From contig JBMNIH010000003.1 of the NCBI GenBank assembly GCA_050950825.1, forward strand, positions 64,001 to 128,000: a stretch of DNA of 64,000 nucleotides, in the 5' to 3' direction. The position numbers and the translations under genes were made by a program. The notes beneath the pieces were generated by a model. The model was not told where the DNA came from. It saw only the letters and a list, made by a program, of their open reading frames with translations, and did not search any database. Below, one piece after another: positions 2,240-48,588 of this stretch. The stretch comes from Clostridia bacterium. GTDB lineage: Bacteria; Bacillota; Clostridia; JAAYHZ01. Numbering within the stretch: position 1 is the stretch's first letter; every line of letters begins with the position of its first letter.

Positions 2240-3643
2240 CTAGAATTTTATATTCTTCCTTGCATAATTCCATAGGTGAAGCACAAGATTTCGGTTTAAG
2301 TAAAGGGTGAATAGGACAAGTATGCCGGCGGCAACAATTTGCCAATAGATGTTTAATGTATAGTAGACAAAAAGTGTAATCATTAAAAGCAGTAAGCTCG
2401 GTATCAGTTTCGGAAAATCGATTTTTAAGTTGATAATATTTCCCACGGATTTGATTCTTATAAAATACAGTACGGCGAAGGAGATCATATTGGATAGGGC
2501 AACACCCCATATGGAAAACAGAGGGATCAGAACAAAGGACAAGACCACATTGCACAATGCCGATATCATGGTGGTAATTAAAGCTATCTTCGTTTTCATG
2601 GATGCCGTATAAACGGCACCTAAAAAGGTCGCTAAAGAATTAAAGGAGCTTCCGATCATCAATAAAGGAACAAATATCCAAGCATCCTTGTATTCTCCCC
2701 CTATGGTCAGCAAGTTATAGATTTTAATGGCCGGCAGCAAGCATGCCGTCATGGAAACGGTAAAGACGGTGAAGGAGGTTAGGCCTCTATTGAAGAATTC
2801 GTCTCTGTCCTCCGCTTCGAATTCGGTAATGACATTTTCTATCCAAGCTTTAAGGAAGATGGAATTTATGAGGATAATTAAGTTCGGAAATTTATAGGTG
2901 ACCGCCAAGATTCCGTTATCCGACGCATCATGGAATGAGATTAATATGTATTTTCCCAATAGACCGATCACCCACCAAGCAATTTGAGTCGGTATTAACG
3001 GTAAACCGAACTTCAATTGCTTTTTGATTTCTTCTTTTGATATTTTTTTTAAATCGATGTATTGCCAAATTTTCGTTCTTAAAGCCATAAGAATAGAAAT
3101 GACCAAAGAACCGGCAATGGAAGAAATCAGCAAGGATTCTCCGCCTAATCCCGGTCCAATAAGCAAGAAAATATTTAGAATCGCATTCACTGCCGCAAAA
3201 ATGAAATCGGACAAGGCATATTCCACCGTTCTATGAAAGCCTCGAACGACCTGCTGCAAAAATATACCCAAATAAGTGGCTAGAAAATAGACAAAAAACA
3301 AGAAGACATATTGAAATTTCAGAAAAATCCCAATGGGAAAATACAATATGGCAAAAACCGAAAGGCCGAATACAAATACGGCTAATGCATTGGTAAAGGT
3401 TTTACTCCTGTCATCCCGAGTTTCATCCGTCATTAAAAAACGAAATACCGACTCCGTAACTTGCATGGTGAATATGGGGGCTATCAAAGGAAGTGCGCTC
3501 ATGAGTATATCGACGGTACCGTAATCGGCCGAGGATAAATAAGCAGTATAGATGGGAAGAAGAATAAACCCCAAGATTTTTGAAGCAAAATTCCCCATGA
3601 AGTATATAATGGTTGTTTTTATGACTCTATCGTTTCTATCCAT
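2240..3643 (-). CDS. Wzx-type oligosaccharide flippase (MOP superfamily)
   Basis: 467 aa with many hydrophobic segments; N-terminal KILGFILLPIYTAYLSSADYG motif; last gene of the glycan operon. Confidence 0.88.
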   Translation of the reverse strand: MDRNDRVIKTTIIYFMGNFASKILGFILLPIYTAYLSSADYGTVDILMSALPLIAPIFTMQVTESVFRFLMTDETRDDRSKTFTNALAVFVFGLSVFAILYFPIGIFLKFQYVFLFFVYFLATYLGIFLQQVVRGFHRTVEYALSDFIFAAVNAILNIFLLIGPGLGGESLLISSIAGSLVISILMALRTKIWQYIDLKKISKEEIKKQLKFGLPLIPTQIAWWVIGLLGKYILISFHDASDNGILAVTYKFPNLIILINSIFLKAWIENVITEFEAEDRDEFFNRGLTSFTVFTVSMTACLLPAIKIYNLLTIGGEYKDAWIFVPLLMIGSSFNSLATFLGAVYTASMKTKIALITTMISALCNVVLSFVLIPLFSIWGVALSNMISFAVLYFIRIKSVGNIINLKIDFPKLIPSLLLLMITLFVYYTLNIYWQIVAAGILVLFTLYLNRNLVLHLWNYARKNIKF

Positions 3644-3648: not shown

Positions 3649-5955
3649 TTACCTGTTCCTTATAACCGAACGAACCCTGTTGTATAGATTGTACAATTTT
3701 TCATAGAGTTCAAACCCGCTGCAATATAAAGAAGCCAAATCGTCTAACGACTTCGTATCCGATTTTAAATCCTCAATCAGTTCTTCATAAAACACCGGTT
3801 TAATCGGATTATACGGGTATTGTACCGTCCAATAATCGCTGCATTCTTTCTCTTCCGGCACTACCCTGTTCTCCGTCTTTAACTTATGGAGGATGGCATC
3901 TCCCGCCTCGGTTAACGCAATCACCATGGATACTCCTTCTTTATCCTTCCGATATCCGGGTCCCCAATAATCTCCGATTCGAATATCCGCCGATGAAGCG
4001 ATTCGAAACTTGCATTCGTAACAAGATTCCATGCAGCAATTACGTAAGTGAAAAAAGCGATAAAAAAGGTCGTTTTTTTCTTCCTTCCGGTACGTTTTGC
4101 CTTGGCCTTCAATTTTCATATACTTTTTACTCCAACCCTCCGACTTGTCCCGAAATCGAACATCGGGATTAAAGCCATATCCGTAGCGTTTGGAGCCTTC
4201 TTTCAAGTACTTCTCCCAAAGATACCGGCTCGGTACTCCGTAGCATATGAGGTCTATCAATACGTATTGTTCTCGCTTGTTTTTCGACTTTAGCAAAAGA
4301 TCAAGCCCCGCTATTTGGCAAGGAGTTCCGAAAACAACCGCCCTTTGCGTTTGATCCATGACCTGCGAAAATGCGACTTTTGTATTGCTCTGCAAATACT
4401 TCGAGCCTTTCAATTGCTCCAAAGAATCCGTGTCAAAAGCCTTTATAAGCCTGTGAACCGCTTCGTTTTTGCTTCTGTCATAAACGCACCCGGCAACATC
4501 ATAGCCTTTCTCCGAAAGGTATCGCGCGATTTCAAACCCGGCTCCGCCGGAGGAAGAAGTAGCTAAAACATTTTTGCATGTTGATTTTAGCATGTATAAC
4601 GAATGTTTGTCTCGATCAATTTTTTGAGTAATATCATTGCCGAAGGGACAGACCGTTCTGCATTTTTTGCATCGTACGCATTTTTCTGCATCGATGAAAA
4701 ATTTCAAAAAGCCAAGTTTGTCTCTTCTTATATCGATGGCATCCTTCGGGCAGACAAGGGAACATACTCCGCAACCGCAGCAAGTGTTTGTAATAACATA
4801 ATCGTATTTACTTTCTTTGCAGGTGTTTATTGCATTCTTTATGGCATTGCTTAAAAAAGCAACGGATTCCGTACGCTTTTCCTCTAATCTTTTGTTACAA
4901 TCGGAATAATCGCATTCGAAAGGATTGTTATACGGCACATTCGTATCTTTCACTAACCTATAATCCAAACCCAACAGTCGTAGAATATGATGGATTCTGG
5001 AATTCTGATTGTTTGCGTCTTTACTTTTGAACCTTTCATAGGTTAAAAAAGGTTTTTGATACAAAATGGAAATACAGGTTCCGTGGAAGGAATCCGTACA
5101 TACCAATGCGGCATTTTTAATAAGGGTTAAAAACTCGGCAGGTCCAATCCCCGGCAATACTTCTTGGCCCCATTGAACATCGCTTTGAAACACAGGGATG
5201 ACTTTTAACGGCAAGCCTATTTTTTTGCTCATTTCAAGGGCATGAGACCGGTTACTTTTATTAGTCCCCAAAAAGTAGCACAGGATATACGGCTTGTCCT
5301 CATCTATCATGCCAAGACTTGGAGATGCCAATTTGTCCCATTCTTCGGAGGTTAAAAGAAGCGTCGGATCCAAAACGACCTGCGCCTTTTTTCCGCTGAT
5401 CCGTTTTATGATTTCCGCTCCTTGTTCTTCCCGTACCGATAAAGAAACAAAGCCTTTTAAATGTTCGGCCATCCGCATTTTAACATAAGGATCGTCGATT
5501 TTCGTTAAGCCGATACTGGGAGCATAAGCAATTCTTTTATTCGGATTTTCGACAAAAGAAAGAAAATATTTCTCGTTAAAAAAGGTAGGCGCCCATATTT
5601 GATCGCTTCCGCACACAAAGGCATCGTATTCTTCATTCAGTAAGAACAAATCCGAGTCCGTTTTGCACTCTTTCGTATAACAAATATATTTTCCTAAAAA
5701 CTCCTCAAAGGCTTTCTCTTTTGCCGGATCTATAAAAGGGACTTCTTTTCCGGTTCTTCTTTTTTTTCTTAAAAGGTCGATATATCCGGATAAACGATTC
5801 AAATTCGACATCGTCACCAATTGTCCGTGGGGAACATAGTCGATCACATCCACGGAATACCCTAGCTTTTTTATGCCGGAAGACAATGCGGTTACTTGCA
5901 AAGCCGTACCGAAATTACGGTAATGCGACCATGTCATTATAGCGATCCTATTCAC
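3649..5955 (-). CDS. Fusion: polysaccharide pyruvyltransferase-like domain + 2x[4Fe-4S] ferredoxin + F420-hydrogenase/dehydrogenase beta-subunit (FrhB/FdhB)-like domain
   Basis: N-terminal half has NFGTALQ, VCGSDQIW, IAYAPSIG, SVREEQG, VLDPTLLL and TDSFHG. Then CCGCGVCSLVCP and CVRCKKCRTVCP, followed by SSSGG, GSKYLQS, GTPCQIAG, DLICYGVPS, SCYEC and DIRIGDYWG. Confidence 0.85.
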   Translation of the reverse strand: MNRIAIMTWSHYRNFGTALQVTALSSGIKKLGYSVDVIDYVPHGQLVTMSNLNRLSGYIDLLRKKRRTGKEVPFIDPAKEKAFEEFLGKYICYTKECKTDSDLFLLNEEYDAFVCGSDQIWAPTFFNEKYFLSFVENPNKRIAYAPSIGLTKIDDPYVKMRMAEHLKGFVSLSVREEQGAEIIKRISGKKAQVVLDPTLLLTSEEWDKLASPSLGMIDEDKPYILCYFLGTNKSNRSHALEMSKKIGLPLKVIPVFQSDVQWGQEVLPGIGPAEFLTLIKNAALVCTDSFHGTCISILYQKPFLTYERFKSKDANNQNSRIHHILRLLGLDYRLVKDTNVPYNNPFECDYSDCNKRLEEKRTESVAFLSNAIKNAINTCKESKYDYVITNTCCGCGVCSLVCPKDAIDIRRDKLGFLKFFIDAEKCVRCKKCRTVCPFGNDITQKIDRDKHSLYMLKSTCKNVLATSSSGGAGFEIARYLSEKGYDVAGCVYDRSKNEAVHRLIKAFDTDSLEQLKGSKYLQSNTKVAFSQVMDQTQRAVVFGTPCQIAGLDLLLKSKNKREQYVLIDLICYGVPSRYLWEKYLKEGSKRYGYGFNPDVRFRDKSEGWSKKYMKIEGQGKTYRKEEKNDLFYRFFHLRNCCMESCYECKFRIASSADIRIGDYWGPGYRKDKEGVSMVIALTEAGDAILHKLKTENRVVPEEKECSDYWTVQYPYNPIKPVFYEELIEDLKSDTKSLDDLASLYCSGFELYEKLYNLYNRVRSVIRNR

Positions 5956-6683
5956 ATCCGTGACCCCTTCATTTTATTCTTTACTTTTACCACAAACTCC
6001 GTTCCTTTGGTACCGATAATTCGTTTTATCTCGTCATTCAGCTTTTCTCTTTTTGACTTCCAAGATCCTGAAAAACGATGAATCGTATAGGTATTTTCAT
6101 TGGCACATATTTTACCGGTTCTCAAATCCTTTGCACAGAAAAAATCAAATGGATAGACATGCAAATCTTCTTTTAATACTTGGTAAGCGTCTTTCGGCTC
6201 CCAACCGTAAGCTTTCTTTGTAAACTCGGCAACCAAGTAGGTGTTAGGAATAGTATCGTAACTTCCGTCGGGAAGTATGAATCTTTTATTCTCGTATTCG
6301 GCCAATAAATCCTTTATCCACGGATGGCCGGATTCCGCCCCTATGGTTCCGGTGCCTAACAAAACATCGCTCTCACAGCCAATGAACGCTTTATGCACAA
6401 GGAACGGATCCAAGGGCTTTAATGCTTCCACATCGGTATCCATGTAGATACCGCCGTAGTTGTATAAAGCATAGAGTCTTACGTAGTCGGAAACAAAAGC
6501 GTATTTATTTACTTCATAAGCTTCTTTAACAAAAGTGTGCTTGGTAACGTCGAATCGCTCTTCATTCCACATAATAAATTCATAATCGGGCATATGTTTT
6601 TTCCACGATCGGATGCATTTGTTTGCAAGCTTCGGCATTTTGCCTTTGCCGAACCAGCAGTAATGAATGATTTTCGGTATCAA
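5952..6683 (-). CDS. DXD-motif glycosyltransferase (GT32 / Och1-like)
   Basis: IPKIIHYCWFG, AFVSDYVRLYALYNYGGIYMDTDVE. Probable TTG start at 6683 with AGGAG upstream, overlapping the upstream stop. Confidence 0.9.
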   Translation of the reverse strand: MIPKIIHYCWFGKGKMPKLANKCIRSWKKHMPDYEFIMWNEERFDVTKHTFVKEAYEVNKYAFVSDYVRLYALYNYGGIYMDTDVEALKPLDPFLVHKAFIGCESDVLLGTGTIGAESGHPWIKDLLAEYENKRFILPDGSYDTIPNTYLVAEFTKKAYGWEPKDAYQVLKEDLHVYPFDFFCAKDLRTGKICANENTYTIHRFSGSWKSKREKLNDEIKRIIGTKGTEFVVKVKNKMKGSRM

Positions 6684-8824
6684 AGCGCAGTCTCCTTTTT
6701 GCAAGTTTTAGACTTTTTCTTATTTATGAAATCCACGTTATACCCAAAAGCAAAAAGAATGATCAAATCCAAAAAACCCATAGCCTCGGAAAACAGAACC
6801 AAGGCTATCGAGAATATGCCTATGGAAATAACCTTTGCCGCATCGTTTTTTCTTTCCTTGAAAAGCTTGACCGGTACAAAAAACGCCGTCAAGCAAAAGA
6901 CAAACAAGGAGACCAAGCCTCCTTCGATGGTCAGCTGCAAAAACTGGTTGTGAGCGCTCAAAAGACCGTCTCTGGCCGTAGGAACAATGTTATAGTCTCC
7001 GGTCATTCCGCGACCTAATACGGGTTTTTCTTTGATCATCTCGATAGCGTTATCCCATAAGTTAATTCTTCCCGACAAGTTTTCAACTCTTTTTGCATCC
7101 TTTTTCAATAACCGTACAAATATATCCGTATACTTTTTTTGAACCTCAAAAACGAACACCGATACAAAAACGCCGATATACGCTAACGAATAGGTGATTA
7201 CGTTGAATACGATCTCCCTTTTCATGATGAAGGGGAAAAGGTAGTAAACAAGGATCGGTATCCACGAAGCGATATTGGATCCGGATTCCGCATAATAGAT
7301 CATATACGTACAAACACCCAGCATACCGGCAATAAGTATGCTTCGAAGCCAATGCTTTTTCTGTACGTTCCTCAACGATAGCATTACCATTGTGAGGATA
7401 TAGATCGGCGACAATTGGTTGGCATGTCTTAAGAAAAACCAATATTTTCTCGTAAGGTTAAGAGGGTTCGTAATCATCGTCACGAAATTAATCAACACCA
7501 AAATGCTCAAGACCGTTGCAAAGGCCGAAACCAATTGCCTCGGTTTTTTCTTAAGTCCCAGTTCAAAGAATGTATAGGCACCGATGATCGGGTAAGCCTC
7601 GGATATGACGGCTTTAACGGATCCGTCATTGATAATTGTAGATATCCCCTTACAGACATACAACAGCAAAAGACCTAAAAATACCGGGGAATAGGACCGC
7701 CTGCATTTATATACATAGATCAAAAAAGAAAGTACAAATACGATTCGTAGGCCGGTCAAGTAAACCGTGCTTACCGTATCCCATTCCAAATGAGTAACGT
7801 AATAGGGCTTGTAAAAGACGGCGGAAGCAAAGAAAAATAGGAGAAAATAAAATACATTTACCGAACGGGACAAGAAAGTCACGAACTTGTTTGTGTATTT
7901 GTATAGGTGCTTGTTGGTTTTAAACAAGAAGGCCTTGGCTTTGTTGCGAAAGCTTAAGGGTTTTCCCGTTAAAAACTCTTTGTCGTAAAGATCGTTGTAT
8001 TTTTTCCCGTACAAGTTTCCGGTATGAACCCCGTTTAAAAACAACATGGCCAGGTAATCGTTTAAAAGGCTTTTAAGCTCTTGGTCTTCCAAGGCTTCAT
8101 AAAGCTCCTCAAGCTCGTAGCAGGTTTTTACCAAATCGATTCCGTTTTTCCTTTGGTTCTTCTTCCTCATGATGGAGTCTTTTCGAACTACGTAATAATA
8201 GAAAGGGAATTTTACGTACTTGACTTTTCGAGCTTTTAAGAAAACCCTCGGCGTCCACTGTTGGTCTTCATGAAGGATTCCTTTTTTAAAGAACAATTCG
8301 TTTTCTATCAAAAAATCTCTTCGATGCAAATGAAGCCATGCGGTCATGTACATTTTATCGGCCTTCAGCTGTATTTTCATAAACTCTTTTCCGGTTAATA
8401 CGGAATCCGAAGGAATTTCAACATGGCTCATTTCAACCTCTTCGTCCCCTTGTATTTGAACCGCATCCCCTACAAGGATATCCATGCCTTCTTGCAGCTG
8501 CTCACAAAAAACCTCGCAGGTTTTTTCGTGAATATAGTCGTCGGAGTCCACGAACAGAACATAGTCTCCCGAGGCTTTCAAAAGCCCTGCGTTTCGTGCA
8601 TCGGAAAGGCCCCCGTTTTCTTTGTGTATCACGTGCACACGAGGATCTTCTTTTCCGTAGGCATCGCAAATTTGAGGACATTCATCCGGACTGCCGTCGT
8701 CCACAAGTATAACTTCAATGTCTTTCATGGTTTGGTTTAATATGCTGTCTACGCATCGATGTATCGTACTTTCCGTCATATACACCGGTACGACGATGGA
8801 AATCTTCGGTTTTAACATGAGCAT
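6680..8824 (-). CDS. Fusion: GT2 glycosyltransferase + O-antigen ligase/Wzy_C-like polytopic membrane domain
   Basis: N-terminal ~315 aa: ISIVVPVY, VDDGSPD, NGGLSDARNAG, FVDSDD, HED. C-terminal ~400 aa is polytopic, with LSGRINLW, KPVLGRG and SAHNQFLQLTIEGG. Confidence 0.82.
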   Translation of the reverse strand: MLMLKPKISIVVPVYMTESTIHRCVDSILNQTMKDIEVILVDDGSPDECPQICDAYGKEDPRVHVIHKENGGLSDARNAGLLKASGDYVLFVDSDDYIHEKTCEVFCEQLQEGMDILVGDAVQIQGDEEVEMSHVEIPSDSVLTGKEFMKIQLKADKMYMTAWLHLHRRDFLIENELFFKKGILHEDQQWTPRVFLKARKVKYVKFPFYYYVVRKDSIMRKKNQRKNGIDLVKTCYELEELYEALEDQELKSLLNDYLAMLFLNGVHTGNLYGKKYNDLYDKEFLTGKPLSFRNKAKAFLFKTNKHLYKYTNKFVTFLSRSVNVFYFLLFFFASAVFYKPYYVTHLEWDTVSTVYLTGLRIVFVLSFLIYVYKCRRSYSPVFLGLLLLYVCKGISTIINDGSVKAVISEAYPIIGAYTFFELGLKKKPRQLVSAFATVLSILVLINFVTMITNPLNLTRKYWFFLRHANQLSPIYILTMVMLSLRNVQKKHWLRSILIAGMLGVCTYMIYYAESGSNIASWIPILVYYLFPFIMKREIVFNVITYSLAYIGVFVSVFVFEVQKKYTDIFVRLLKKDAKRVENLSGRINLWDNAIEMIKEKPVLGRGMTGDYNIVPTARDGLLSAHNQFLQLTIEGGLVSLFVFCLTAFFVPVKLFKERKNDAAKVISIGIFSIALVLFSEAMGFLDLIILFAFGYNVDFINKKKSKTCKKETAL

Positions 8825-8829: not shown

Positions 8830-9876
8830 TTAACGAACAAAATTTAAAACTTTCTCTTTAAAATCCTTGTTTTCTTTTATAACGACCTCCAAAAATCGTC
8901 TTCGTCCTTGATCAAAAAGTTCTACTTGAAAGCTTCTTATATAACCCAACACGGCATCTTCCGTATTATTGAAATCTTTGATTACAAGCCCCAGATCGTA
9001 TTCTTTCACAACCTCCGACAAATACGTCCCCTCAAAAGCGATAACGGGTTTTCCGTATATGGCGGCATTGTACAGCCGGTTTGTAAGGAAGGTTTTGCAA
9101 TTGATAAAATCGTTAGGCTCCAAAGCGTTGATCATATCGGAGCTCAAGTACAAAGAAGGCTCTTGTTCTCTTACATACCTTCCCGTAAGCTCTACGTTTC
9201 TTATGGGGCTTTGCTTTAAATAGGCATCGATGTCTTTGTTGACAAAGCCTTCCCCGTGAAACTTTAAGGATATACGCTTCGAATCCTTTAGAGCATTCAT
9301 AAAATCAACGGTTATTTGATATTCTCTTAAGGCCCCGATATAGTTTATAAAAATATGTTCTTTGGCGGGAAGGCTTGGATCCGCCTCATGGATGTTTTCT
9401 AAGGATTCGATTCGGGTATTATGGTTGACGGTATAGGTTTCTCCTTCGGGAAGCCATTGCTTGTATGCCGGCGACGATAAAACCGTAGAAGTCGCGTTTT
9501 GAATGGCCTTCTTCATATTAAAACAATGCATTAAAGGATGATAATCCCGTATATCGATGATGTACTTGTTCTTGTACTTCTTCAACAAATACCGATGCAA
9601 GAAAAACAAAAGCTGAATTCCGAAAACAACGATTTTATCGTATCGATATTTCTTCAGAAGCTTAAATACGAAGGAAGAGTACTTTACATAATCAAAAAAG
9701 CCTCTTTTGTAGCAAGCCTTTGAATCTCGGAAAACAAATTCGTTAATCTCTTCGATTTGAAATCGGTCCCATCGAATAACGTCGTATTTTATGCCCTCTT
9801 CGTCTAATATTTTTGTATAGTTTCCAACGTAAGGCATATACAACATATTGGCAGGACATACCAAAGCAATTTTCAT
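8830..9876 (-). CDS. Capsular-biosynthesis glycosyltransferase (GT-B fold, putative)
   Basis: DIRDY, YIGALR and LTNRLYNAAIYGKPVIA motifs resemble a GT-B C-terminal domain; operon context. Confidence 0.65.
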   Translation of the reverse strand: MKIALVCPANMLYMPYVGNYTKILDEEGIKYDVIRWDRFQIEEINEFVFRDSKACYKRGFFDYVKYSSFVFKLLKKYRYDKIVVFGIQLLFFLHRYLLKKYKNKYIIDIRDYHPLMHCFNMKKAIQNATSTVLSSPAYKQWLPEGETYTVNHNTRIESLENIHEADPSLPAKEHIFINYIGALREYQITVDFMNALKDSKRISLKFHGEGFVNKDIDAYLKQSPIRNVELTGRYVREQEPSLYLSSDMINALEPNDFINCKTFLTNRLYNAAIYGKPVIAFEGTYLSEVVKEYDLGLVIKDFNNTEDAVLGYIRSFQVELFDQGRRRFLEVVIKENKDFKEKVLNFVR

Positions 9877-9929: not shown

Positions 9930-11159
9930 TTATACACCAAACCTTCGCATAATTCTTTCGTATGCGATCCTCGTATGAAAGTGTTCCTCCAAATACCGTC
10001 GTCCGTTTTCTCCTAATTGCGAAAGCTTATCCTTTTCCTCTATAACCTTCTTTAAAGTCTTTTTAAAATTTAGGGTATCGCCGCTTTCGCACCACCGGCC
10101 GAAGTCACCTTCTAAAATGGCGTCTTTTACGTCCGTATTTTTATCCGTTGCCGCCAAAACGGGCAAGCCGTGGTTCATGTAATCCAATATCCTCGAAGGA
10201 AAATTCGGTACCGTAAACCTTCGGTCCAAAAAGATCAACCCCACGTCGCAGGCTTCCAATAGCTCGTAGTATTCTTTGATCCTTAAGCTGTCCAACACGG
10301 TGATATATTCGTCGGAGGCCGTATTTTTGTATTCCTTGAGTTTATAAAAATCGGTTCCGGAGCCTACCATGACAAAATGAATTTCCTTGTTGTCCTCGTT
10401 GTCTTTTAGCACCCGAACAATATAGTCCACGTCTTGGGGCTTTCCGAAGTTACCTCCGTAAACGAATATCAATTTATCCGAAGGAAGTGAGAATCGTGCT
10501 CTTAGCATCCTTTTTCTTTTTTCTCTTTCCTCCGGGCTAACTAAATCCGTACGAGGGTTGATGGTATTCGGGCATATTTCAACTCGTTTCGGGTCCAAAT
10601 ACGGATTGTGTTTTAAAAGAAAATCCACATTGGCTTGGGACATGCAGCCGATGTAGTCGCTGATTAAATACAATTGTTTTTCTTTTCTTCGAAAATAACG
10701 ATATATAACGGCCGTCCATCCGGTTTTCTTTAACAGCCCGATATCGCAGGCGTTTTGAGGGAAAATGTCTTTTAGCATCAAATAGGAGGCCGCACCGTCT
10801 CTTTTCTTTAAAAAAGCCACCGTTTTGGTTACGGTTATCGGCGGTGTGGAATAAAGGACCAAATCGAACTTGACGTCTCCGAAATATTCTTGTATGGCTT
10901 TTTTAAATTGCATACCGATGAAAAAGGTGGAAATACCCTTTTCGATCCGGCCGGTTTTTGTGATGTTGCCGGTTTTCACCCGTAAGACCTTCATTCCGTG
11001 TTCGATGTTCATTTCGGTAGGAAGACCGCTCCGCCTTTCCCTTTGGCACACCACATAAACCGAATGTCCTTGGTCTCGAAAGTGCCGAAGCAAATCGGGA
11101 TAAACGGTGTTTTCGCCTAAATCTTGCAGTCCTCCGATGGAAAGAAACACGATGTTCAT
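9930..11159 (-). CDS. GT4 glycosyltransferase (WbuB-like)
   Basis: YSTPPIT, KDIFPQN, YGGNFGKPQ, PNFPSRILDYM...PVLA. Confidence 0.88.
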   Translation of the reverse strand: MNIVFLSIGGLQDLGENTVYPDLLRHFRDQGHSVYVVCQRERRSGLPTEMNIEHGMKVLRVKTGNITKTGRIEKGISTFFIGMQFKKAIQEYFGDVKFDLVLYSTPPITVTKTVAFLKKRDGAASYLMLKDIFPQNACDIGLLKKTGWTAVIYRYFRRKEKQLYLISDYIGCMSQANVDFLLKHNPYLDPKRVEICPNTINPRTDLVSPEEREKRKRMLRARFSLPSDKLIFVYGGNFGKPQDVDYIVRVLKDNEDNKEIHFVMVGSGTDFYKLKEYKNTASDEYITVLDSLRIKEYYELLEACDVGLIFLDRRFTVPNFPSRILDYMNHGLPVLAATDKNTDVKDAILEGDFGRWCESGDTLNFKKTLKKVIEEKDKLSQLGENGRRYLEEHFHTRIAYERIMRRFGV

Positions 11160-11172: not shown

Positions 11173-12213
11173 TCAGAATTCTCGGTATTGGGGGAAGAAT
11201 CCGTTGTTGCACTGAAACCCCCGTTCCCCGTTTCGAATGGCCATAATCTCGTCGTATTTTTCCCGATTAAATATTCTTTTGCCGATATAAAAGCGCCGGA
11301 TGTTATCGGGAGCAAAGCTTTTCTTAAATCGAAAGATGCCGTCGTCTTTACCGTATCCGCCGCCTAAGACGAAACGTTTCAATCCTTTTTCCTTCAACCA
11401 CTTAATGGCCTCCACCTTCAAAAAATCGTTCGGCCTTAAGTGAAAATATCGGCTGTCGGTTCCTCCTAAGAAGGAATAGCCGTTTTCCTTTCCGTACAGG
11501 ATCAGCTCCGTTGAAATGACCTTGTCCTCGTAAAGAACGTGAATATATACCGTATTTTCCTTTAATTCATTGATGGTATGAAAAAATTCTTCGGGAAAAT
11601 AATAGTAGGATTTGGCATCCTTTCGGTCCATGGTCCCGTAATACACGTCAAGAAAATCCTTCAGTCGTCTTCCCTCTTCGTCGATTTCCACTTGCAGCCC
11701 TGCCGTATGAGCCCTTTTCATATTCTTCCTCACTTTATGCTCAAAGCCTTTGATGATGTCCTCCATATCCGGATCCAAAGGACATACCACGTTGCCGGTA
11801 CAGGACTCGATTTTGCCTTCAAAAACATCCGTATACTTGGTGTACAAATGGAAACGAATAAACTCGGATATGTACCCTTTTTCTTTGCATAATTCCACGT
11901 ATTCTTTCTCTAAAGATTCACAGCCTTCCCCTTCAATCCAAAACCCGCCGTAGCCGTAGGGCGTGGAAAGGTCGAACCAACGGTTCTTTTCCAATTTCCC
12001 TAAAAAGGGCTTGCTTTCGGCAATGTCTCTTTTCATAACTACATTCATGGCTTTCGCCGTATCGCTTTCGTAATAGAACAACAACGGTTTTCCGTCTCCG
12101 ATTCTTTCATACGCTTTGGCATAGCAACTTAAATAATAGACGTCGTAACGGTCAAAGCTTTTTACAATGGAATCCCATTTTGCCGATTCTTCTATAGGTA
12201 CGATGGTTATCAT
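11173..12213 (-). CDS. FemAB/FemX-like GNAT-fold (amino)acyltransferase
   Basis: TPYGYGG, FIRFH, RKNMKRA, FLDVYYGTMDRKDAKSYYYF, LRPNDFL, LGGG..DGIFRFKKSF. Confidence 0.8.
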   Translation of the reverse strand: MITIVPIEESAKWDSIVKSFDRYDVYYLSCYAKAYERIGDGKPLLFYYESDTAKAMNVVMKRDIAESKPFLGKLEKNRWFDLSTPYGYGGFWIEGEGCESLEKEYVELCKEKGYISEFIRFHLYTKYTDVFEGKIESCTGNVVCPLDPDMEDIIKGFEHKVRKNMKRAHTAGLQVEIDEEGRRLKDFLDVYYGTMDRKDAKSYYYFPEEFFHTINELKENTVYIHVLYEDKVISTELILYGKENGYSFLGGTDSRYFHLRPNDFLKVEAIKWLKEKGLKRFVLGGGYGKDDGIFRFKKSFAPDNIRRFYIGKRIFNREKYDEIMAIRNGERGFQCNNGFFPQYREF

Positions 12214-12710
12214 GATAAACGATTTTCTCCTCTGTCCTTTACCTTTTTTTCAAACTGCAGCCTTGTAACATAAAATCCCTGTTTTTCATAAAAACGAATC
12301 ACGTTTTCATTTTCCTTTGTAGCCATAAGCTCCATTGTTTGTATTCCTTCATCAAACGCAATTCTTTCGATGCAATCCAAAAGTTTTGTTCCGACACCTT
12401 GCCCCCTGTATGCCGAATCGACGGCAATCTCGCTGATATGAAGCCTTGTCTCCCCTAAGAAGCTTCTTTTGTATGCCCATAAAAATCCGATGATCTTCCG
12501 GTCAACAAAGGCGCCGATGAGCATGGCGGATCCGTCCTTGCAAAATCGGATCATGTCTTTGTATCGAGATTCCGCAAACTCGTGTAAGCCGCCTTTGCCG
12601 GGAAAATTCAACCGGTAGTTTTCATAAAGCAGCCGAGTAATTTCGTCGGGATTTTTCTGCAAATCTTCCGTTTTAACAGGCCGAAATACGATATCTTTAG
12701 CCGCTTCCAT
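12210..12710 (-). CDS. GNAT-family N-acetyltransferase
   Basis: IAVDSAYRGQGVGTKLL acetyl-CoA motif A; N..VIRFYEKQGF motif B. Confidence 0.9.
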   Translation of the reverse strand: MEAAKDIVFRPVKTEDLQKNPDEITRLLYENYRLNFPGKGGLHEFAESRYKDMIRFCKDGSAMLIGAFVDRKIIGFLWAYKRSFLGETRLHISEIAVDSAYRGQGVGTKLLDCIERIAFDEGIQTMELMATKENENVIRFYEKQGFYVTRLQFEKKVKDRGENRLS

Positions 12711-13392
12711 TTCGCCTTTCTCCTCTTTCCGTATCCAGGTCCTTCAAAATGTGCTCCTCTCCTACAAGTATGTCCTTTCTTTGAAAGACCGCTAGGACCG
12801 TTTTTATTACAATTCTCATATCGTTTAAAAAGGTAATATTCTTAACATATTCGATATCTTTTAAAAACCGCTCGTCCCAAGACAGCGCGTTTCTTCCGCT
12901 GATTTGGGCAAGTCCTGTAATCCCCGGCCTTACGCTGCTTCGTGCTCTTTCATGCTCGTAATAATAGGGCAAGTACCGAACCAAAAGAGGCCTGGGCCCT
13001 ACAAAGCTCATATCACCTTTTAGAATATTAAACAGCTCCGGCAGCTCGTCCAAGGAGGTGGATCGTAACAGTTTTCCGAATCTCGTCAGCCTTTGGTGGT
13101 CCGGAAGAAGCCTTCCCTCCTTGTCCCTCTCATCGGTCATGGTCCGAAACTTGTACATGACGAATATCTTCTCATAAAGCCCGGGCCTTTCTTGCTTGAA
13201 AAGGACGGGCTTTCCTAAGTTTATTCTCACAAGTATCGCTAATATGAACATGACGGGACTTAATATGACGATCGCCAAAAAAGACAAAACAAAATCCATG
13301 GGTCTTTTTATATATCGGCAATATATGCCGTTTTTAACCGTCACCCGATTTTCCTTGTCCGTAATATGTCGATCTTTTCGAAACCCCCTCAT
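12697..13392 (-). CDS. Undecaprenyl-phosphate sugar-1-phosphate transferase (PglC/EpsL-like initiating enzyme)
   Basis: KRPMD, FKQERPG, YKFRTM, RSTSLDELPEL, GDMSFVGPRP, RPGITGLAQ. The true start may be a few codons downstream. Confidence 0.92.
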   Translation of the reverse strand: MRGFRKDRHITDKENRVTVKNGIYCRYIKRPMDFVLSFLAIVILSPVMFILAILVRINLGKPVLFKQERPGLYEKIFVMYKFRTMTDERDKEGRLLPDHQRLTRFGKLLRSTSLDELPELFNILKGDMSFVGPRPLLVRYLPYYYEHERARSSVRPGITGLAQISGRNALSWDERFLKDIEYVKNITFLNDMRIVIKTVLAVFQRKDILVGEEHILKDLDTERGERRNGSG

Positions 13393-29811: not shown

Positions 29812-30679
29812 TTACCAAAAACGATTCCTTTCCTCATTCCACTTCATGATGTTTTCATCGTATTTTAATGTCCTAATAACCTTGAGCACCGCTCGAGTGA
29901 GCAGCCGCATGGCACATTTACCGAACCTTTCATTGCAGCCGTAGGGCGTATCGCCTGCATAATTGTTCGGATAGTTGACGCTCCAAAATTGCGTCGATTC
30001 TCCGAGGCCAAGCTCATATAAGTAATCCGCTCTATGGGTAGAAAGACCGGATAAGGCGTCGGCTTTGTCCATTCTTACAAGTTCGGGGCGGCAGCCGAAA
30101 ATAAGGGCGGTTTCGCCAAATCCTGCGTGCCCGTATGTCCGCTTGTTTTCAACAAATTCCTTTATAACCTCGATATCTTCATCGGTAAGTTCATATAGCG
30201 CCTCACGTCCCTTCTTTTTCAAGCACTTCCATCATGTAATACGGACTGCCGTATTTCGCGCCGAGAGAACATGAGGTAACCACATAATCCTTTTTATCAT
30301 GTAATGTGCTGCGTATGAAGTTCCCGATCATGAATTTATTGCCGCCGTGGCTGTTAAGCAGCAATATTTTTTTAAAACCGTTCCTTGCAATTTCGGAGCA
30401 CAGCTGCTTTAATAGCTCCTGCTGAAGCTCGACGGTGAGTCTTATGGCACCCTTCCAACGTATATGGCCTTGTACATCGCCAAACATAAAGGGCGGAAAC
30501 TCCATCACAGGCTCAATTTTGGCCGCTTCATGAAGAGCGTATGTAATTTTCATTGTGTCGGTAGCTACCGGCAAGTGTTGTCCGTGCATCTCAAGACACC
30601 CTACGGGCATCACGCAAAGCCCCTTCGTTTCTTCAATGGCTTCGTAAAACTCTTCTTCTCTCAAATCGGTCCACAGCAT
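29812..30679 (-). pseudogene. Creatininase/amidohydrolase-family gene, frameshifted
   Basis: GCLEMHGQHLPVATD and NSHGGN lie in ORF 30203-30679; HAGFGET lies in ORF 29812-30222. The frames join if one A is removed from the A5 run (T5 at 30215-30219). Confidence 0.85.
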
Positions 30680-30712
30680 ATCTTTACGCTCCTTCCGATG
30701 GATTTTTAGTCG

Positions 30713-31571
30713 TTATATAATGATTTTATTCATCACTTCATCGTTTTTTAACAACTTTAATACTTTCACCGTTCGTTCTACGGCGATCTCAACGGCTGCT
30801 TCTCCAATGGCATGGCTGCAGCCTATAGGTGCATGCCCGCTGTAAGCATTCGGGAAATTTCTATACCATGCCTTGCCCCAAAATAGGCCTTGTTCCGTTA
30901 TCGGGTCGGCTATATGCGTACTCATACCGGATTCCGCTTCCGCGCGGTCGAGTCTTACGAGCTCCGGATACGTTCCCATCACCATTGCGGTTTCTCCGAA
31001 CCCGGCATGGCCGTCAAATTTGCCTTTTGCAACGTAGTCCTCAAGCACGGCCACATCTTCATCCGTAAGGTTCGGGAAATAGTCCCGTCCCCGTTCATGA
31101 ATGACTCCTAGAATATCCTTAGGCATAATAAGCTTGTTGTAGAATATAAACACTTCATAGCTTTTTTTCGTTGAGGTAACGGCACGTGCGAAATTCTGCA
31201 AAAAGGCGTTATTGCCTCCGTGGCTTGAAAACAGCAATATCTTGGTAAAGCCGTTACGCCCGATCTCGTCGCAGATCTCACGTAAAAGACTTAACAGAAG
31301 CTCCGAGCTGAGTGCAACATAACCGTAATGAGCGCCTTCCCCCGCTCTATTTGCCTGAACTCCTTGTAAATCTCCGAAAAATAAAGGAGGAAAAACACAT
31401 ACTTCTTCTCTCTCCGAAGCCAATTCAAGTATTTTTCCTCCTTTTAGCGTATCCGTTCCTAACGGAAGATGTTGACCGTGTTTTTCTATGGAACCTATCG
31501 CCATTGCACACACCGTGAACACGTTCAAACATCGGCTTAAATTCTTCTTCTCGCAAGTTTATCCACAACAT
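30713..31571 (-). pseudogene. Creatininase/amidohydrolase-family gene, frameshifted near 5' end
   Basis: The true start MLWINLREEEF at 31571 (GAGGTG RBS) matches paralog MLWTDLREEEF but is out of frame with GSIEKHGQHLPLGTD/SSHGGN/HAGFGET. Adding one TG unit to the (TG)n run at ~31507-31513 restores the frame. Confidence 0.82.
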
Positions 31572-42203: not shown

Positions 42204-43718
42204 TCAATACATCCCCAGTTGTTGGGCAAGCCACATGCTTTGGCTGTTCATTTTCGCCAGTGCGGATTCCATGGCTGCGAATTTTTTATAGTATTTTTCG
42301 CCCTTCAGATACATTTTATATTCCAGCTCTTTAATGTGATCTTTGTATTCATTGATCTTTTGACTCAAAGCATCGAAATCCACTTTTCCGTTGTAATCGG
42401 TAAAGGATGATAATAGTCGAGGTATGAAGCCGGATTCTTTATACTTAACCGATTTGTCTTCGGAGCTCGAGTTTTGTGTAAACAGCTTCATCACGTTGTC
42501 CCCGTTTTCTTTCAAGGCATTTCTCAGCTTTTGCTCGTCAATAACCAACTTCCCCCTATCATTATATGCCCCCGTCGTTATACCGATATCGGCTAAGCTT
42601 AAGTTCAAGCCCTCAATTTTTTGATAGACGCTTGCTCTTAATTCGTTTAAAAGAGTCGATATACCGATATCGTTTCGAAGCAGTCCTTTTTTCGCTTGCT
42701 CCTCCCATTTTGCTATATCCTCTTCCTTCATTTCTTTCTTTTGCGCTTCCGTCAGAGGAGTATAGTTGTAGTTCTTTTCTTCATAGATCCGATTGTTTAA
42801 ATTTTCGACCAATTCGTTGTAGGCGTTAATAAAATCCTTGATTTTATTAACCGTCGTATCGATATTTTGCGATACGCTGAACGAAATCGGTTTATCCGTT
42901 GTCCCCCTCAGGTTGTACTCAATACCGTCTATGACAAAGGTATTGCTGCTTCGAATCACTTTATAATTGTTAATCGTAATTTCGGCATCTTCTCCGACGA
43001 AGATTCCTTCGTCAATTCCTAAAGCGGAATCATCTCCTACGGCATTCCCCAAGATGTTTTCAACTTGAAGTGTTGCCGAAGATCCGGTAGCCTTTGTCGA
43101 TAAGGTCAATTTATCGGAAAGACTGCTGTAATAAACGGTAACGTTGGCTTCGCTGCCGTTGATATCGTTTATCAGCTTTTGAAGAGTATCGTTTTCATCA
43201 AACTCGAAAACGACGTCATTGATGGAAAATGAAATTTTCCCGTTTACAAATTCCAAGGATCTTGCCAAAGGCAAATCTTTTAAAGCGACGGATGTATTCA
43301 GTCCTTGCCCGCCGGATATTTTATCCGCTCCCGTTGCCGTTGCGCCTTTCGCTAATCGCGTAATTTCGTTTATGACATAGTTTCCCGTAATGGCACCGGA
43401 ATTCGCGGTTATCTTCACGTTCGCATTGGATTCCATCTCCACGTCATATGATTTATAAGCCGAAGAAGTATACATATTGGTTTCCGGACTCAAAACACTC
43501 ATATACTTGTTTCGGAATACCCGGATCATATTGTTGACTTCTCTTAAGCTATCGTTTTTCCATTCAACCAAAGTCTTGCTTTTGTACACCTTATCGATCT
43601 TCAGTTGTTCAATCTGCAACAAGCTGTTAACAAGGCTGTCGGTATCCATACCGGAAACCATTCCGGAGATTCTTGTTGAGCTTGATATTCCTGTTAAGTA
43701 ATTGCCATATGACGCCAT
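42204..43718 (-). CDS. fliD: Flagellar filament cap protein FliD
   Basis: RISGMVSGMDTDSLV, SNTFVIDGI, IKDFINAYN, PLTEAQK..M....IAKWEEQAKKGLL, FAAMESALAKMNSQ. Confidence 0.95.
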   Translation of the reverse strand: MASYGNYLTGISSSTRISGMVSGMDTDSLVNSLLQIEQLKIDKVYKSKTLVEWKNDSLREVNNMIRVFRNKYMSVLSPETNMYTSSAYKSYDVEMESNANVKITANSGAITGNYVINEITRLAKGATATGADKISGGQGLNTSVALKDLPLARSLEFVNGKISFSINDVVFEFDENDTLQKLINDINGSEANVTVYYSSLSDKLTLSTKATGSSATLQVENILGNAVGDDSALGIDEGIFVGEDAEITINNYKVIRSSNTFVIDGIEYNLRGTTDKPISFSVSQNIDTTVNKIKDFINAYNELVENLNNRIYEEKNYNYTPLTEAQKKEMKEEDIAKWEEQAKKGLLRNDIGISTLLNELRASVYQKIEGLNLSLADIGITTGAYNDRGKLVIDEQKLRNALKENGDNVMKLFTQNSSSEDKSVKYKESGFIPRLLSSFTDYNGKVDFDALSQKINEYKDHIKELEYKMYLKGEKYYKKFAAMESALAKMNSQSMWLAQQLGMY

Positions 43719-43786
43719 CGGTTTCCTCCTGCTTAAAACATCCTAAGTTTCAAAGTATTCTTTTTAACAACGCTTTTTATAAGTTT

Positions 43787-45743
43787 GATTCTACTGCAAA
43801 AAGCTCATTCTTACACTCGTAAAATTACACTAATGACATAATAAAATCCAATTTATGGTATTCAATTGCGATAAACGTCCCGAATTTGGGTATCAGCTAC
43901 CTCGATTCGATATCAAATCGAGGTAGTTTTCATGTGTTTTTTACCTTTTGCCTAATAAAAGGCACAATAATCCCTTTTGTTTGTCAAGTTGTTACTTTTG
44001 CATATCCGCCTTGCAAAAATTTGATAACTCGTTTTATGTTCTGCGCCATTGATAAGAATCCGCATACAACGGTTGATTTAATCAAACCGCGTACCTTCAT
44101 ATTATTCAGTCCTGTGCGTTTCAACGCCGAAACGGTTCCTTCGATTCCCGCTCTCTTACTAACGTTTTCCTTCCTGCAAGTGGCTATTTCTTCTCGTTTC
44201 CTTGCGGTTTCCATTGCTTTTTCACTGATTCTCACCACACAGTTTTTGTTCTGTTGCTTGCTGTAGCATCTGTTAAAATGCTCGCATTGCAGACAAACAT
44301 CTGTTTCGAAGTATGCCACCAATTGTCCTTTCGCTCTAACCGATCGGAAAGGCATATGACCCGCAGGGCATTTTTCAATCAATCCCGTTTCTTCTTTTAT
44401 TTCAAACTCACTCACCGAGATCTTGTCCGACGGCTTCCGTCCGCACATGTCCGTCAAATGAATTTGGACATCATTGGCTTCCGCGGCTTTGTAAACATCT
44501 TCCGAGTGAAAACCTCCGTCTATGTACATGTCGGTACATCCGGTGTTTTCTTTGACCTTTCGGATTCGCCCGCTTAATATTTCTTTGTCGCTTACAATGT
44601 TGGGCTTAACGGCGTAATCGGTAATCAATTGAACTTTGTTGTCTTTCGAGCAGGTTTCCGATACCTCAAGTACATAGCCGCTTTGCCCTTTATTGCCTTT
44701 CTTTCGATAGGTGGCGTCCTCGTCATAGGCGGATTGAAGCGAATCGGACGAGATTTCTTTGCTCTTCTTCGGTACAAGGTTACCGTTTTTATCGGTCTCC
44801 GACTGTTCTTTGATGAACCGTTCCAGTATGCGAACTTCGTCCGATTCTTTCTTGTCGGGCAGTTCCTTCAATATCTTGAGAGCTTCCGCGCTCATAGACA
44901 AAAGCGTCGTAAGCCTGCTTTCCGTATCGACGGTTCTTACCTTATGCAGCATTTCGGTTTTGAAATCCTTTTCAAGAACCTTCCCCATTGATTCGGGTCT
45001 TTGTTCTTTCGGAATGGCTTTTACCCCTTTCTCCAATACGTCGTAAGCCAATGCCAATCGACCCGCTTTCTTGATATTGCTTACGAACATGGTCGTATCG
45101 GTTCTTTGTTCGTCGAGCGAGGTTCCCGTCAGTTTCGCAAAATTCCTCAGTAACTCTATGAATTGACCGAATAAGAGGTTTTCGTCCTCGGGATGCTCCG
45201 TCAAATATTCATATACTCTTTCCCGAAAGTAATACAGCGTTCTTTCCGATATGTAAATCTCGCCAAGCGTTTTCCCTCCGACGGCATAAGTCGTTTGATA
45301 ATCAAGATATAGGGAATCCAAAAGATCTTGATCATTCAGATCTTTCATATACTTGATATATTCCAAAGACAGCAATATATTCACAGGTGTATTCGGTCTG
45401 CCTGTCTTGCTGTACAATTTCGCAAAAGGTTCTTCGTTGATATGGCAAAATACATGTTCATAGAATACAGGTGCCCAAGATTTTTTAAATCTTTCGCGTG
45501 CTTTTTCATGCATCCAATCGAGACTTGAGAAAATCGGTTGTTGTTTATGTGAATCGTTTGCTCTGAACATAAAATATATCTCCGGAAAATTCAAAATATG
45601 GATTAATGAAACATATCTATTTTACCATAAAACCTGTCTCAAGTCTAGTGTTTTCAAGTGTTTCGAGGCTTTTTAAGAGCCCTTTATGAAATTTTCTAGG
45701 TACATTAATTGTATAGATTTACTTGAGTTTTTGCAGTAGAATC
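43787..45743 (-). mobile_element. Complete insertion sequence (~1957 bp; IS1182/IS5-like DDE element)
   Basis: Perfect 16-bp terminal inverted repeats GATTCTACTGCAAAAA (43787-43802) and TTTTTGCAGTAGAATC (45728-45743). Flanking 6-bp direct repeat AAGTTT at 43781-43786 and 45744-45749. Confidence 0.92.
43984..45570 (-). CDS. DDE transposase
   Basis: GRPNTPVNIL, QRTDTT, SLQSAYDEDATYRKK, YIDGGF, CPAG..C..C..C, RAGIEGTVSALKR; start MFRAN after GGAGA. Confidence 0.92.
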   Translation of the reverse strand: MFRANDSHKQQPIFSSLDWMHEKARERFKKSWAPVFYEHVFCHINEEPFAKLYSKTGRPNTPVNILLSLEYIKYMKDLNDQDLLDSLYLDYQTTYAVGGKTLGEIYISERTLYYFRERVYEYLTEHPEDENLLFGQFIELLRNFAKLTGTSLDEQRTDTTMFVSNIKKAGRLALAYDVLEKGVKAIPKEQRPESMGKVLEKDFKTEMLHKVRTVDTESRLTTLLSMSAEALKILKELPDKKESDEVRILERFIKEQSETDKNGNLVPKKSKEISSDSLQSAYDEDATYRKKGNKGQSGYVLEVSETCSKDNKVQLITDYAVKPNIVSDKEILSGRIRKVKENTGCTDMYIDGGFHSEDVYKAAEANDVQIHLTDMCGRKPSDKISVSEFEIKEETGLIEKCPAGHMPFRSVRAKGQLVAYFETDVCLQCEHFNRCYSKQQNKNCVVRISEKAMETARKREEIATCRKENVSKRAGIEGTVSALKRTGLNNMKVRGLIKSTVVCGFLSMAQNIKRVIKFLQGGYAKVTT

Positions 45744-45774
45744 AAGTTTACATTCATATTCGCTTTTTAGCGGT

Positions 45775-45799
45775 AAAAGGCCCGGTTCGACGGGCCTTT
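45775..45799 (-). terminator. Terminator downstream of flagellin 3
   Basis: AAAGGCCCG-N6-CGGGCCTTT, with a short T run on the minus strand. Confidence 0.65.
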
Positions 45800-45877
45800 C
45801 GCCTATGCAACCTTTTTCATCGGTCAATGGGTTTTAAGTGTTATATATCAAAGGTTCGCTTTTATTTATGTATCAAA

Positions 45878-46993
45878 CTATCTTAACAGCTGCAGAACCG
45901 TCTGCGGTGTTTGGTTTGCTTGTGCCAACATAGCCGTTGCCGCTTGCGTCAGGATGTTGTTCTTGGTGAATATCATCATTTCTTTTGCCATGTCGACGTC
46001 GCGGATACGGCTTTCGGCGGCTTGCAGGTTTTCCGCAGAAATGTTCAAGCTGTTGATCTTGTGCTCCAATCTGTTCTGGTAAGCGCCTAACTTCGCACGT
46101 TCGGTAGAAACCAGATTGATGGCGTTGTTAACGGATGTAATTGCTGCCGTTGCTCCTTCTCTTGTGGATATATCGGCATCGGCGATTGCCAGACCCTTTG
46201 TGCTCATATCGCCGATCGTCAGAGCCAATTCGTCTCCCGCCAAAGATCCGGTTTGGAAGGTAGGTGTTGCATTAACCGTGATAGTCGCGGTGCCGGCTGT
46301 CAACTCTTTAATGGTCTTGGTGCCCAAATCAATGGATACGTTTAAACCGTCACCGCTAAAATCGATAACCGTAATGTCGCCATCGGCAGGGGTGGTATCC
46401 CAGTCATAGTCTACACTGGCGAGTTCGGTACCTGAAGAGTCGCTTATGCTTATCGTTGCGGTATCCGTACCCAATGTTACTGCAACGGTATAATCGCCTA
46501 CCGCTAAAACTCCCTGGTCATTATTCACCGTGACAATACCGATGTTGTCGTTCTTCACGGAAATGCCGCCAAAGGTCCCGTCCAAAAGAGCTCTGCCGTT
46601 GAAGGTGGTTTTGCTTGCGATGTCGTTGATTTCCTTCTTCAGTTCTGCAAATTCTTGCTGCAGCGCTTCACGGTCCACGTTGTCTTGGTTGGTATCGCTT
46701 GCCGATTGAACGGCCAGCTCGTTCATTCTCTGCAGAATGGCATGAGTTTCGGTTAAAGCACCTTCTGCGGTTTGGATCAATGATATGGCGTCTTGGGAAT
46801 TCTTCGCGGCCATTTCCAATCCGCGGATCTGAGCCTTCATCTTTTCAGAGATTGCCATTCCTGCTGCATCGTCTCCGGCTCTGTTGATTCTGTAACCGGA
46901 TGAAAGCTTTTCAATCGACTTGGATGTGTTGGCATTGTTGATGCTTAAGTATCTTTGTGTGTTTAATGCCATTAGGTTGTTGTTAATACGCAT
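45878..46993 (-). CDS. fliC: Flagellin (copy 3, 371 aa)
   Basis: MRINNN..., EKLSSGYRINRAGDDAAG, RAKLGAYQNRLEH, SRIRDVDMAKEM, QTVLQLLR; true start at 46993 with AAGGAGGT. Confidence 0.97.
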   Translation of the reverse strand: MRINNNLMALNTQRYLSINNANTSKSIEKLSSGYRINRAGDDAAGMAISEKMKAQIRGLEMAAKNSQDAISLIQTAEGALTETHAILQRMNELAVQSASDTNQDNVDREALQQEFAELKKEINDIASKTTFNGRALLDGTFGGISVKNDNIGIVTVNNDQGVLAVGDYTVAVTLGTDTATISISDSSGTELASVDYDWDTTPADGDITVIDFSGDGLNVSIDLGTKTIKELTAGTATITVNATPTFQTGSLAGDELALTIGDMSTKGLAIADADISTREGATAAITSVNNAINLVSTERAKLGAYQNRLEHKINSLNISAENLQAAESRIRDVDMAKEMMIFTKNNILTQAATAMLAQANQTPQTVLQLLR

Positions 46994-47084
46994 AAAATTT
47001 ACCTCCTTGAAAATCTTTTCGCTTCCTTGCTTAGTCCTTTTTTCTCCGTATAGGCGCCTTTTCGGATAAACTTGTTCCGTAACT

Positions 47085-48586: not shown

Positions 48587-48588
48587 CG

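Follow-up and report, generated by a model that had tools for sequence, protein, structure and literature searches.

The stretch of DNA analysed here (the window) comprises 64,000 nucleotides from a Clostridia bacterium of the JAAYHZ01 lineage (GenBank assembly GCA_050950825.1, contig JBMNIH010000003.1, positions 64,001 to 128,000), and its minus strand carries, at 3649..5955, a gene in which a polysaccharide pyruvyl transferase domain is fused to an iron–sulphur reductase of the FrhB family. The fusion protein is quite probably a bifunctional cytoplasmic tailoring enzyme that decorates a single sugar of a Wzx/Wzy repeat unit with a lactyl (1-carboxyethyl) ether. Its open reading frame (ORF) begins with GTG and is open over 768 codons, while the plus-strand reading of the same interval is closed by many stops. 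The public database entry is a 762-residue form that starts at Met7 (base 5937), but the consensus N-terminus of the homologues, MKKVAxMTW, matches the longer GTG start (VNRIAIMTW) better than the Met7 start.

Three modules follow one another in this protein. The first is a PS_pyruv_trans domain (PF04230; residues 14-305, 5041..5916, 107.8 bits against a cut-off of 25.3) and the second a pair of ferredoxin-type [4Fe-4S] motifs (residues 391-439, 4639..4785) recognized by the Pfam models Fer4 and Fer4_7, the latter with 34.1 bits against a cut-off of 27. In the translation, these two CxxCxxCxxxCP motifs read C392-x2-C395-x2-C398-x3-C402-P and C426-x2-C429-x2-C432-x3-C436-P. The third is an FrhB-like flavin/[4Fe-4S] core (3862..4593), delimited by Pfam, by comparison with a paralogue and by solved relatives: FrhB_FdhB_C (PF04432) covers residues 538-698 (71.9 bits against a cut-off of 23.3), and residues ~455-537 are homologous to FrhB_FdhB_N in the paralogue. 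A predicted structure of the fusion in the Atlas (predicted template modelling score, pTM, 0.60; predicted local distance difference test, pLDDT, 0.82) has neighbours that all belong to the same family. The original prediction, made from the letters alone, had described a single 768-residue ORF joining a pyruvyl transferase-like domain, two [4Fe-4S] motifs and an FrhB/FdhB-type domain and had proposed a check of these domains with hidden Markov models; ORF and Pfam bear it out, with PS_pyruv_trans, two Fer4 and FrhB_FdhB_C matches all above cut-off. None of the nine Pfam matches is to a MurA-type (EPSP-synthase-like) or a MurB-type (FAD-binding) domain.

A profile of the reductase part matches solved structures (8rja_E at 2.9e-22, Fsr 7np8_A at 4e-20 and FrhB 9r51_B at 4e-12), and the motifs SGG, GSKY..S and GTPCQ are common to it and to solved members of the FrhB family, although the part of the core with CHGVPS and DIRxGDYWG failed to align with the best solved relative. 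FrhB, FpoF and the N-terminal half of Fsr resemble the fusion in fold family and in combining a double [4Fe-4S] ferredoxin insert with an FrhB core. They are, however, modules that depend on coenzyme F420, whereas the genome that hosts the fusion (97% complete) lacks F420 synthesis genes, with no match for cofG and only 19.9 bits for cofE against a cut-off of 180.65. Dependence on F420 was rejected on these grounds, so that 'coenzyme F420 hydrogenase beta subunit' denotes membership of a family here and not a function; the FpoF model itself scores 46 bits on the fusion, its cut-off being 475. A precedent for an FrhB-family enzyme that works with ferredoxin, not F420, and reduces a C=C bond is provided by two reductases of phototrophs, HCAR and BciB, the latter acting on a vinyl group; unlike the fusion, both act on tetrapyrroles and are not known to have a transferase partner.

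The eight ferredoxin cysteines are invariant in 72 of 72 full-length fusions, as are Cys490, Cys546, Cys645 and Cys648, and Cys571 is nearly so. Cys546, Cys571, Cys645 and Cys648, which are also retained in a relative from Escherichia coli O124/O164 discussed below, would be the ligands of a third cluster. The probable ligand Cys571 lies in the motif I570-C-Y572-G (4237..4248), for which the fusion alignments give the consensus ICHG. It had been noted from the letters alone that ICHG reads ICYG here, and this is indeed so: residue 572 is His in 67 of the 72 fusions and Tyr in the window. His also occupies this site in 32 of 35 sequences of a reductase alignment (the reductase part of the window and 34 homologues of 365-443 residues), while Y, F, R, N, K and A are found there in otherwise intact homologues and the E. 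coli O124 reductase has Gly (CGG). Inactivation by His572Tyr was accordingly rejected as an explanation. That the gene is inactive or decaying, as the exchange in a conserved CHG motif might suggest, is very improbable. In favour of decay, this genome has a further copy of the fusion that carries a frameshift and stands in a locus broken up by insertion sequences; against it, the frame in the window is open throughout, and every other invariant residue is retained.

The second fusion gene (G000:C3:11315-13625; L088 9312-11610) lies ~52 kb before the start of the window and is split by its frameshift into ORFs of 553 and 219 residues. Its Wzy-type locus contains PGA_cap and TupA-like ATP-grasp genes, a truncated glycosyltransferase gene of family 2 (GT2) and two rve-type transposase genes.

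Fusions of this kind are common. A word-seeded search, in which 8,000 candidates were scored, returned at least 1,513 homologous proteins at E <= 0.001, among them full-length fusions at 43-62% identity (in Clostridium cochlearium, C. botulinum, C. perfringens, Ruminiclostridium, Parasporobacterium and Acetivibrio, for example) and likewise abundant stand-alone reductases of about 365-410 residues. In a survey of species genomes, one per species, at least 596 stretches encode relatives of the reductase part, and the best 80 of these were studied with local profiles and Pfam. A pyruvyl transferase is fused to, or found beside, the FrhB-like gene in 73 of these 80 loci. Twenty are fusions; another 43 have a separate transferase, which is adjacent or one gene off in 42 and 5.3 kb off in one; in a further 10, the transferase was detected by Pfam only. 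Two loci are interrupted by contig ends (L004, L081), and loci with two reductases tend to hold two transferases (L035, L055, L063). The earlier statement that the two gene types recur together thus holds among these relatives. The fusion is widespread and already catalogued, and the copy in the window is an ordinary member; what is added here is the contrast in active-site motif and an independent look at the O124 cluster, both described below.

L049 and L068 have a reductase–transferase pair beside a GH26 (glycoside hydrolase family 26) gene or a GntR regulator gene, plus an asparaginase gene, and show no obvious glycan assembly locus. The Campylobacteraceae locus L079 was considered as a pgl operon, which was rejected; it is a Wzx/Wzy locus and is uninformative on the 234-Da N-glycan sugar.

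The transferase domain differs from ketal-forming members of its family at a defined position. In CsaB, R148, R306, H308 and K328 were identified by mutagenesis and docking as contacts of phosphoenolpyruvate (PEP), equivalent to R217, R337, H339 and K361 of Pvg1p, as set out in part of a published account (PMC10435577). A search of the Protein Data Bank (PDB) sequences with the transferase domain of the window alone gave no match. A profile of transferases that have a reductase partner ('linked' transferases) does match Pvg1p (5ax7, E 0.0019), aligning TDsFHg with TDRLHA. His291, in the TDSFHG motif of the window (T287-D-S-F-H291-G, 5080..5097), thereby aligns with Pvg1p H339 and CsaB H308. 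All 31 of the linked transferases retain this residue, and the alignment makes it the PEP-binding His and places Ser289 where the ketal enzymes have Arg, R306 in CsaB and R337 in Pvg1p. Arg175 (motif SVRE, 5431..5433), invariant in the 72 fusions and the 31 linked transferases, is a probable PEP-binding Arg and a putative counterpart of CsaB R148.

The residue two positions before the His differs, with exceptions, between linked and unlinked transferases. In the alignment of 31 linked enzymes it is Ser in 14, Thr in 14 and Arg in two, with one sequence unaligned, and Ser is found in three more linked transferases (from relatives and from the genome of the window) as well as in the O124 enzyme. 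The unlinked set was drawn from 31 PF04230 matches in this genome and 25 relatives, of which five partial ones were dropped; 22 of the remaining 26 are unlinked, and they have Arg in 21 cases and Phe in one. E. coli WcaK also has Arg. Altogether, Ser or Thr is present in 32 of 35 linked and Arg in 22 of 24 unlinked transferases. CsaB, WcaK and Pvg1p (PDB 5ax7), which belong to the same Pfam family but have no reductase partner, show R-L-H where the subfamily of the fusion has S/T-F-H-G. No NCBIfam model, the CsaB equivalog (TIGR03609) and the WcaK equivalog (TIGR04006) included, matches residues 1-370 at E 1e-5, and orthology to either enzyme was therefore rejected. Unlinked proteins of 750 residues turned out to be fusions of a family 4 glycosyltransferase (GT4) with CsaB, above the cut-off of the CsaB equivalog (259 versus 213 bits).

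One such GT4–CsaB fusion, of 762 residues and likewise above that cut-off, is encoded in the genome of the window without a reductase partner (G000:C3:400511-402796; L095 289-2574) and is its ordinary pyruvyl transferase of the ketal type. Open frames of 740-790 residues like this one are present in many relatives.

The product of one member of the family is known from E. coli. Available text of an O-antigen review (PMC7685785) places lactyl groups on rhamnose in O58, on glucose (Glc) in O124 and O146, and on N-acetylglucosamine in O69 and O150. The five-sugar unit of O124 is given there with a GlcLA-(beta1-6)-Glc side chain, GlcLA being glucolactilic acid, and with no ketal, and O164 is said to differ from O124 only by having Glc for GlcLA, as a result of a frameshift in wfeP (PMC7685785).

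The O124 cluster was reached through K-12 glf: 125 E. coli records have a divergent glf, and seven of the 12 listed were opened. In strain WEC, wzx and wzy are annotated as 'O124/O164 family' and the order is galF, wzx, an FrhB-like gene (460 residues), a pyruvyl transferase gene (378 residues), GT2, a family 32 glycosyltransferase gene (GT32), wzy, GT2, glf, GT2 and gnd, Pfam assigning both genes of interest to the FrhB-like and pyruvyl transferase families. These two are the only genes in the cluster other than those for glycosyltransferases, wzx, wzy and glf. With four transferases for a five-sugar unit that is started elsewhere, only the pair is left to explain the lactyl group. The pair is present on the chromosome of six of 5,426 E. 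coli genomes. Three of the six have this stretch shortened by one base, with a transferase that is split in the annotation into two coding sequences (136 and 233 residues) and an identical reductase, which fits the O164 frameshift. The original prediction had favoured a lactyl ether over a pyruvate ketal, and the O124/O164 comparison supports it on that point.

Over 356 residues, the N-terminal domain of the fusion and the O124 transferase have 29% identity (E 5e-30), and TDSFHG is common to both. On a profile of the 31 linked transferases, the O124 enzyme scores 223.6 bits, the CsaB of the genome of the window 28.4, E. coli WcaK 17.0 and an unlinked capsule transferase 13.6; on a profile of the N-terminal part of the fusions, the O124 enzyme scores 190 bits. 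By these sequence comparisons, the transferase domain of the window falls in the same subfamily as the O124 enzyme. The E. coli reductase reaches 75.7 bits on the profile built from the reductase parts. Its gene (L131 4167-5549) has only one CxxCxxC and one CP left from the two ferredoxin motifs, and Gly for the His of the family, which suggests that electrons enter by another route in a facultative aerobe. The E. coli O124/O164 pair, found also in Shigella dysenteriae type 3 and S. boydii 17, resembles the fusion in bringing the two families together by wzx in a Wzx/Wzy locus and differs from it in consisting of two genes, reductase then transferase, where the window has one. The evidence for it is genetics and structural chemistry, not enzymology.

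On three small E. coli plasmids (24-34 kb), a pyruvyl transferase gene is ~70-75% identical in parts to that of O124, and one of the three plasmids has an annotated FrhB-like gene next to it.

It had been claimed from the sequence that no function was established for the pair. Senchenkova et al. in 2006, and other work of 2006-2008, reportedly provided genetic evidence on it in E. coli and Shigella, and the claim is out of date. This kind of gene pair is genetically known in enterobacteria, with a product assigned by genetics and not by enzymology. The literature searched yielded no paper giving a function to the FrhB-like/pyruvyl transferase pair or linking 'FrhB' with 'pyruvyl', and nothing useful on lactyl-ether sugars in Butyrivibrio. 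Klebsiella may offer a parallel. In a study of its cps loci, K8, K22, K37 and K66 have a pyruvyl transferase gene without reported pyruvylation, and across all the loci the label 'nitroreductase' is given to two genes and 'coenzyme F420 hydrogenase' to one (Pan 2015). K22 and K37 are described as carrying 4-O-(1-carboxyethyl)-glucuronic acid. K66 may carry a lactyl-rhamnose.

How, then, does a lactyl ether compare with a ketal as the product? An ordinary ketal pyruvyl transferase, with a redox module that does an unrelated job (reducing a keto-sugar or another substituent, or acting as a redox-sensing or structural partner), would agree with the ketal products of every PS_pyruv_trans enzyme that has been studied biochemically (CsaB, Pvg1p), with the retention of Arg175 and His291, and with reductase relatives that have no transferase, one reductase being fused to a GNAT protein. 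Yet ketal formation requires no redox step, the CsaB equivalogs of this genome and its relatives, like WcaK, have R-L-H and no such partner, and the homologous pair of O124 is accompanied by a lactyl ether and not by a ketal. We consider the ketal reading improbable.

Several observations nevertheless weigh against lactyl-ether synthesis by the fusion. The bridge to O124 is thinner on the reductase side, where window and E. coli proteins are only 21% identical (E 3e-7), and since the E. coli protein has lost most ferredoxin cysteines, electrons may take different paths in the two. Two assignments are our inference, that of the three genomes with a split transferase gene to serogroup O164 and that of the name wfeP to the transferase gene. 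The survey sample is biased, being the closest 80 of at least 596 stretches, with one of the two search patterns requiring CHG, and five of its 80 reductase loci (L050, L053, L060, L067, L077) have no transferase within ~2.8 kb. Together with P0228, a protein of 527 residues in which GNAT acetyltransferase domains are fused to an FrhB-like reductase, these loci indicate that the reductase family is not bound to one partner. The motif rule has exceptions, as the linked transferases of L025 and L079 keep Arg, the unlinked one of L118 has Phe, and Ser occurs in an unlinked transferase of a Klebsiella-like E. coli capsule locus that lacks a reductase (Ec-U7); moreover, transferases of the relatives were classed as linked or unlinked from flanks of only 1.5 kb. 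Reports of lactyl ethers are rare although the pair is very common, and no enzyme of this kind that had been assayed was found in the literature searched.

The fusion is gene eight of nine in a minus-strand Wzx/Wzy glycan locus, as assigned by Pfam, with an AraC-type regulator after the nine. In the direction of transcription, the locus opens with a Bac_transf initiating phosphoglycosyl transferase (12697..13392; 208.7 bits), a GNAT acetyltransferase (12210..12710), a FemAB/GNAT_6-like transferase found by the Pfam and NCBIfam scan (11173..12213) and a glycosyltransferase of the GT4/GT1 type (9930..11159). There follow an ORF of 348 residues without a Pfam or NCBIfam match (8830..9876), a protein of 714 residues (6680..8824) and a GT32-type glycosyltransferase (Gly_transf_sug; 5952..6704), whose gene overlaps the start of the fusion. 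Within the single ORF at 6680-8824, a GT2 glycosyltransferase domain is joined to a Wzy_C membrane domain of the O-antigen polymerase/ligase type. Last comes a Wzx-type flippase (Polysacc_synt; 2240..3643), separated from the fusion by a 5-base gap and next downstream of it, so that the gene was correctly said to sit directly before the flippase. The GT32 enzyme beside the fusion is 39% identical (E 1e-54) to that of the O124/O164 cluster (L131 7730-8518), while the GT2 domain resembles the O124 GT2 enzymes at family level only (27-31% identity); the branch beneath the lactylated sugar may be similar in the products of both loci.

The genes for the FemAB-like and GNAT proteins (window 11173-12710) overlap by 4 bases, and the pair hints at amino-acid or acyl decoration of the glycan. 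Their presence bears on another reading, with the same two-step logic and another product: an N-(1-carboxyethyl) group on an amino sugar or attached amino acid, or a group elaborated beyond lactyl. In favour of it, the glycan may bear such decorations; no family member, however, is tied to such a product, and the only one with a known product gives an O-ether. We regard this reading as having little likelihood.

Elsewhere in the window, also on the minus strand, a gene of the Creatininase family is present at 30203-31528 as two consecutive ORFs (158 and 271 residues) that match profile positions 3-133 and 16-238 of 238, and may be either a broken gene or two partial copies. Three flagellin genes stand in a row at 42204-49821 (444, 374 and 410 residues), with a DDE transposase gene between the flagellins and fliD, and the rest of the right half of the window is a flagellar gene block.

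For lactyl-ether synthesis by the fusion, the following course can be envisaged. The PS_pyruv_trans domain would transfer the C3 unit of PEP to one hydroxyl, giving an enolpyruvyl ether without ketal closure. Electrons would then reach a flavin of the C-terminal module through the two ferredoxin-type clusters and the core cluster, and the flavin would reduce the C=C bond of the enolpyruvyl ether to a lactyl ether. Decoration would take place on the cytoplasmic side, and the finished unit would be flipped by the Wzx protein encoded next door. We infer the enolpyruvyl intermediate, the two-step course, the flavin, the electron donor (ferredoxin or flavodoxin) and the acceptor sugar. As the studied members of the PS_pyruv_trans family are described as acting on lipid-linked acceptors, whereas the E. 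coli O-antigen review names uridine diphosphate-linked GlcLA (UDP-GlcLA; PMC7685785), the lipid-linked and the nucleotide-sugar stage are both possible.

There are two precedents for the chemistry. MurB reduces an enolpyruvyl group to lactyl in a flavin-dependent reaction, and the course proposed for the fusion resembles that of MurA and MurB in that an enolpyruvyl group from PEP is transferred to a sugar hydroxyl and then reduced by a flavin to a lactyl ether. There is, however, no homology: the fusion lacks a catalytic Cys of the MurA kind, and its reductase is an iron–sulphur protein that does not have the NADPH/FAD fold of MurB. In FbiB's C-terminal domain, PEP-derived dehydro-F420-0 is reduced with the reduced form of flavin mononucleotide (FMNH2), converting enolpyruvyl to lactyl, according to a published study (PMC6450877). 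This is the same reduction as proposed for the fusion, but in a nitroreductase fold with flavin mononucleotide (FMN), on a cofactor precursor and with no glycan involved. We lean slightly towards the view that the FrhB-like module is a third, unrelated enolpyruvyl-to-lactyl reductase after MurB and FbiB, driven by a low-potential electron supply of the ferredoxin type, and that transferases with S/T-F-H-G stop at the enol ether.

Annotations everywhere name the pair 'coenzyme F420 hydrogenase beta subunit' and 'polysaccharide pyruvyl transferase', and it is read as ketal pyruvylation, often in organisms that cannot make F420. If its product is a lactyl ether, the anionic epitope specified by many capsule and O-antigen loci in gut anaerobes is a different one. 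The distinction matters for antigen prediction, for recognition by phages and antibodies and for glycan engineering, a lactyl ether being acid-stable and a ketal acid-labile. The contrast between S/T-F-H-G and R-L-H is a simple sequence rule that is open to a direct mutational test, and the fused form, with both activities in one polypeptide, would be convenient for a first enzymology. Should the proposal be true, acid-stable lactyl-ether sugars would be a common and overlooked capsule decoration among anaerobes of the gut and the rumen (Clostridia, Bacteroidota, Verrucomicrobiota and others), and would be predictable from the S/T-F-H-G motif together with the partner gene.

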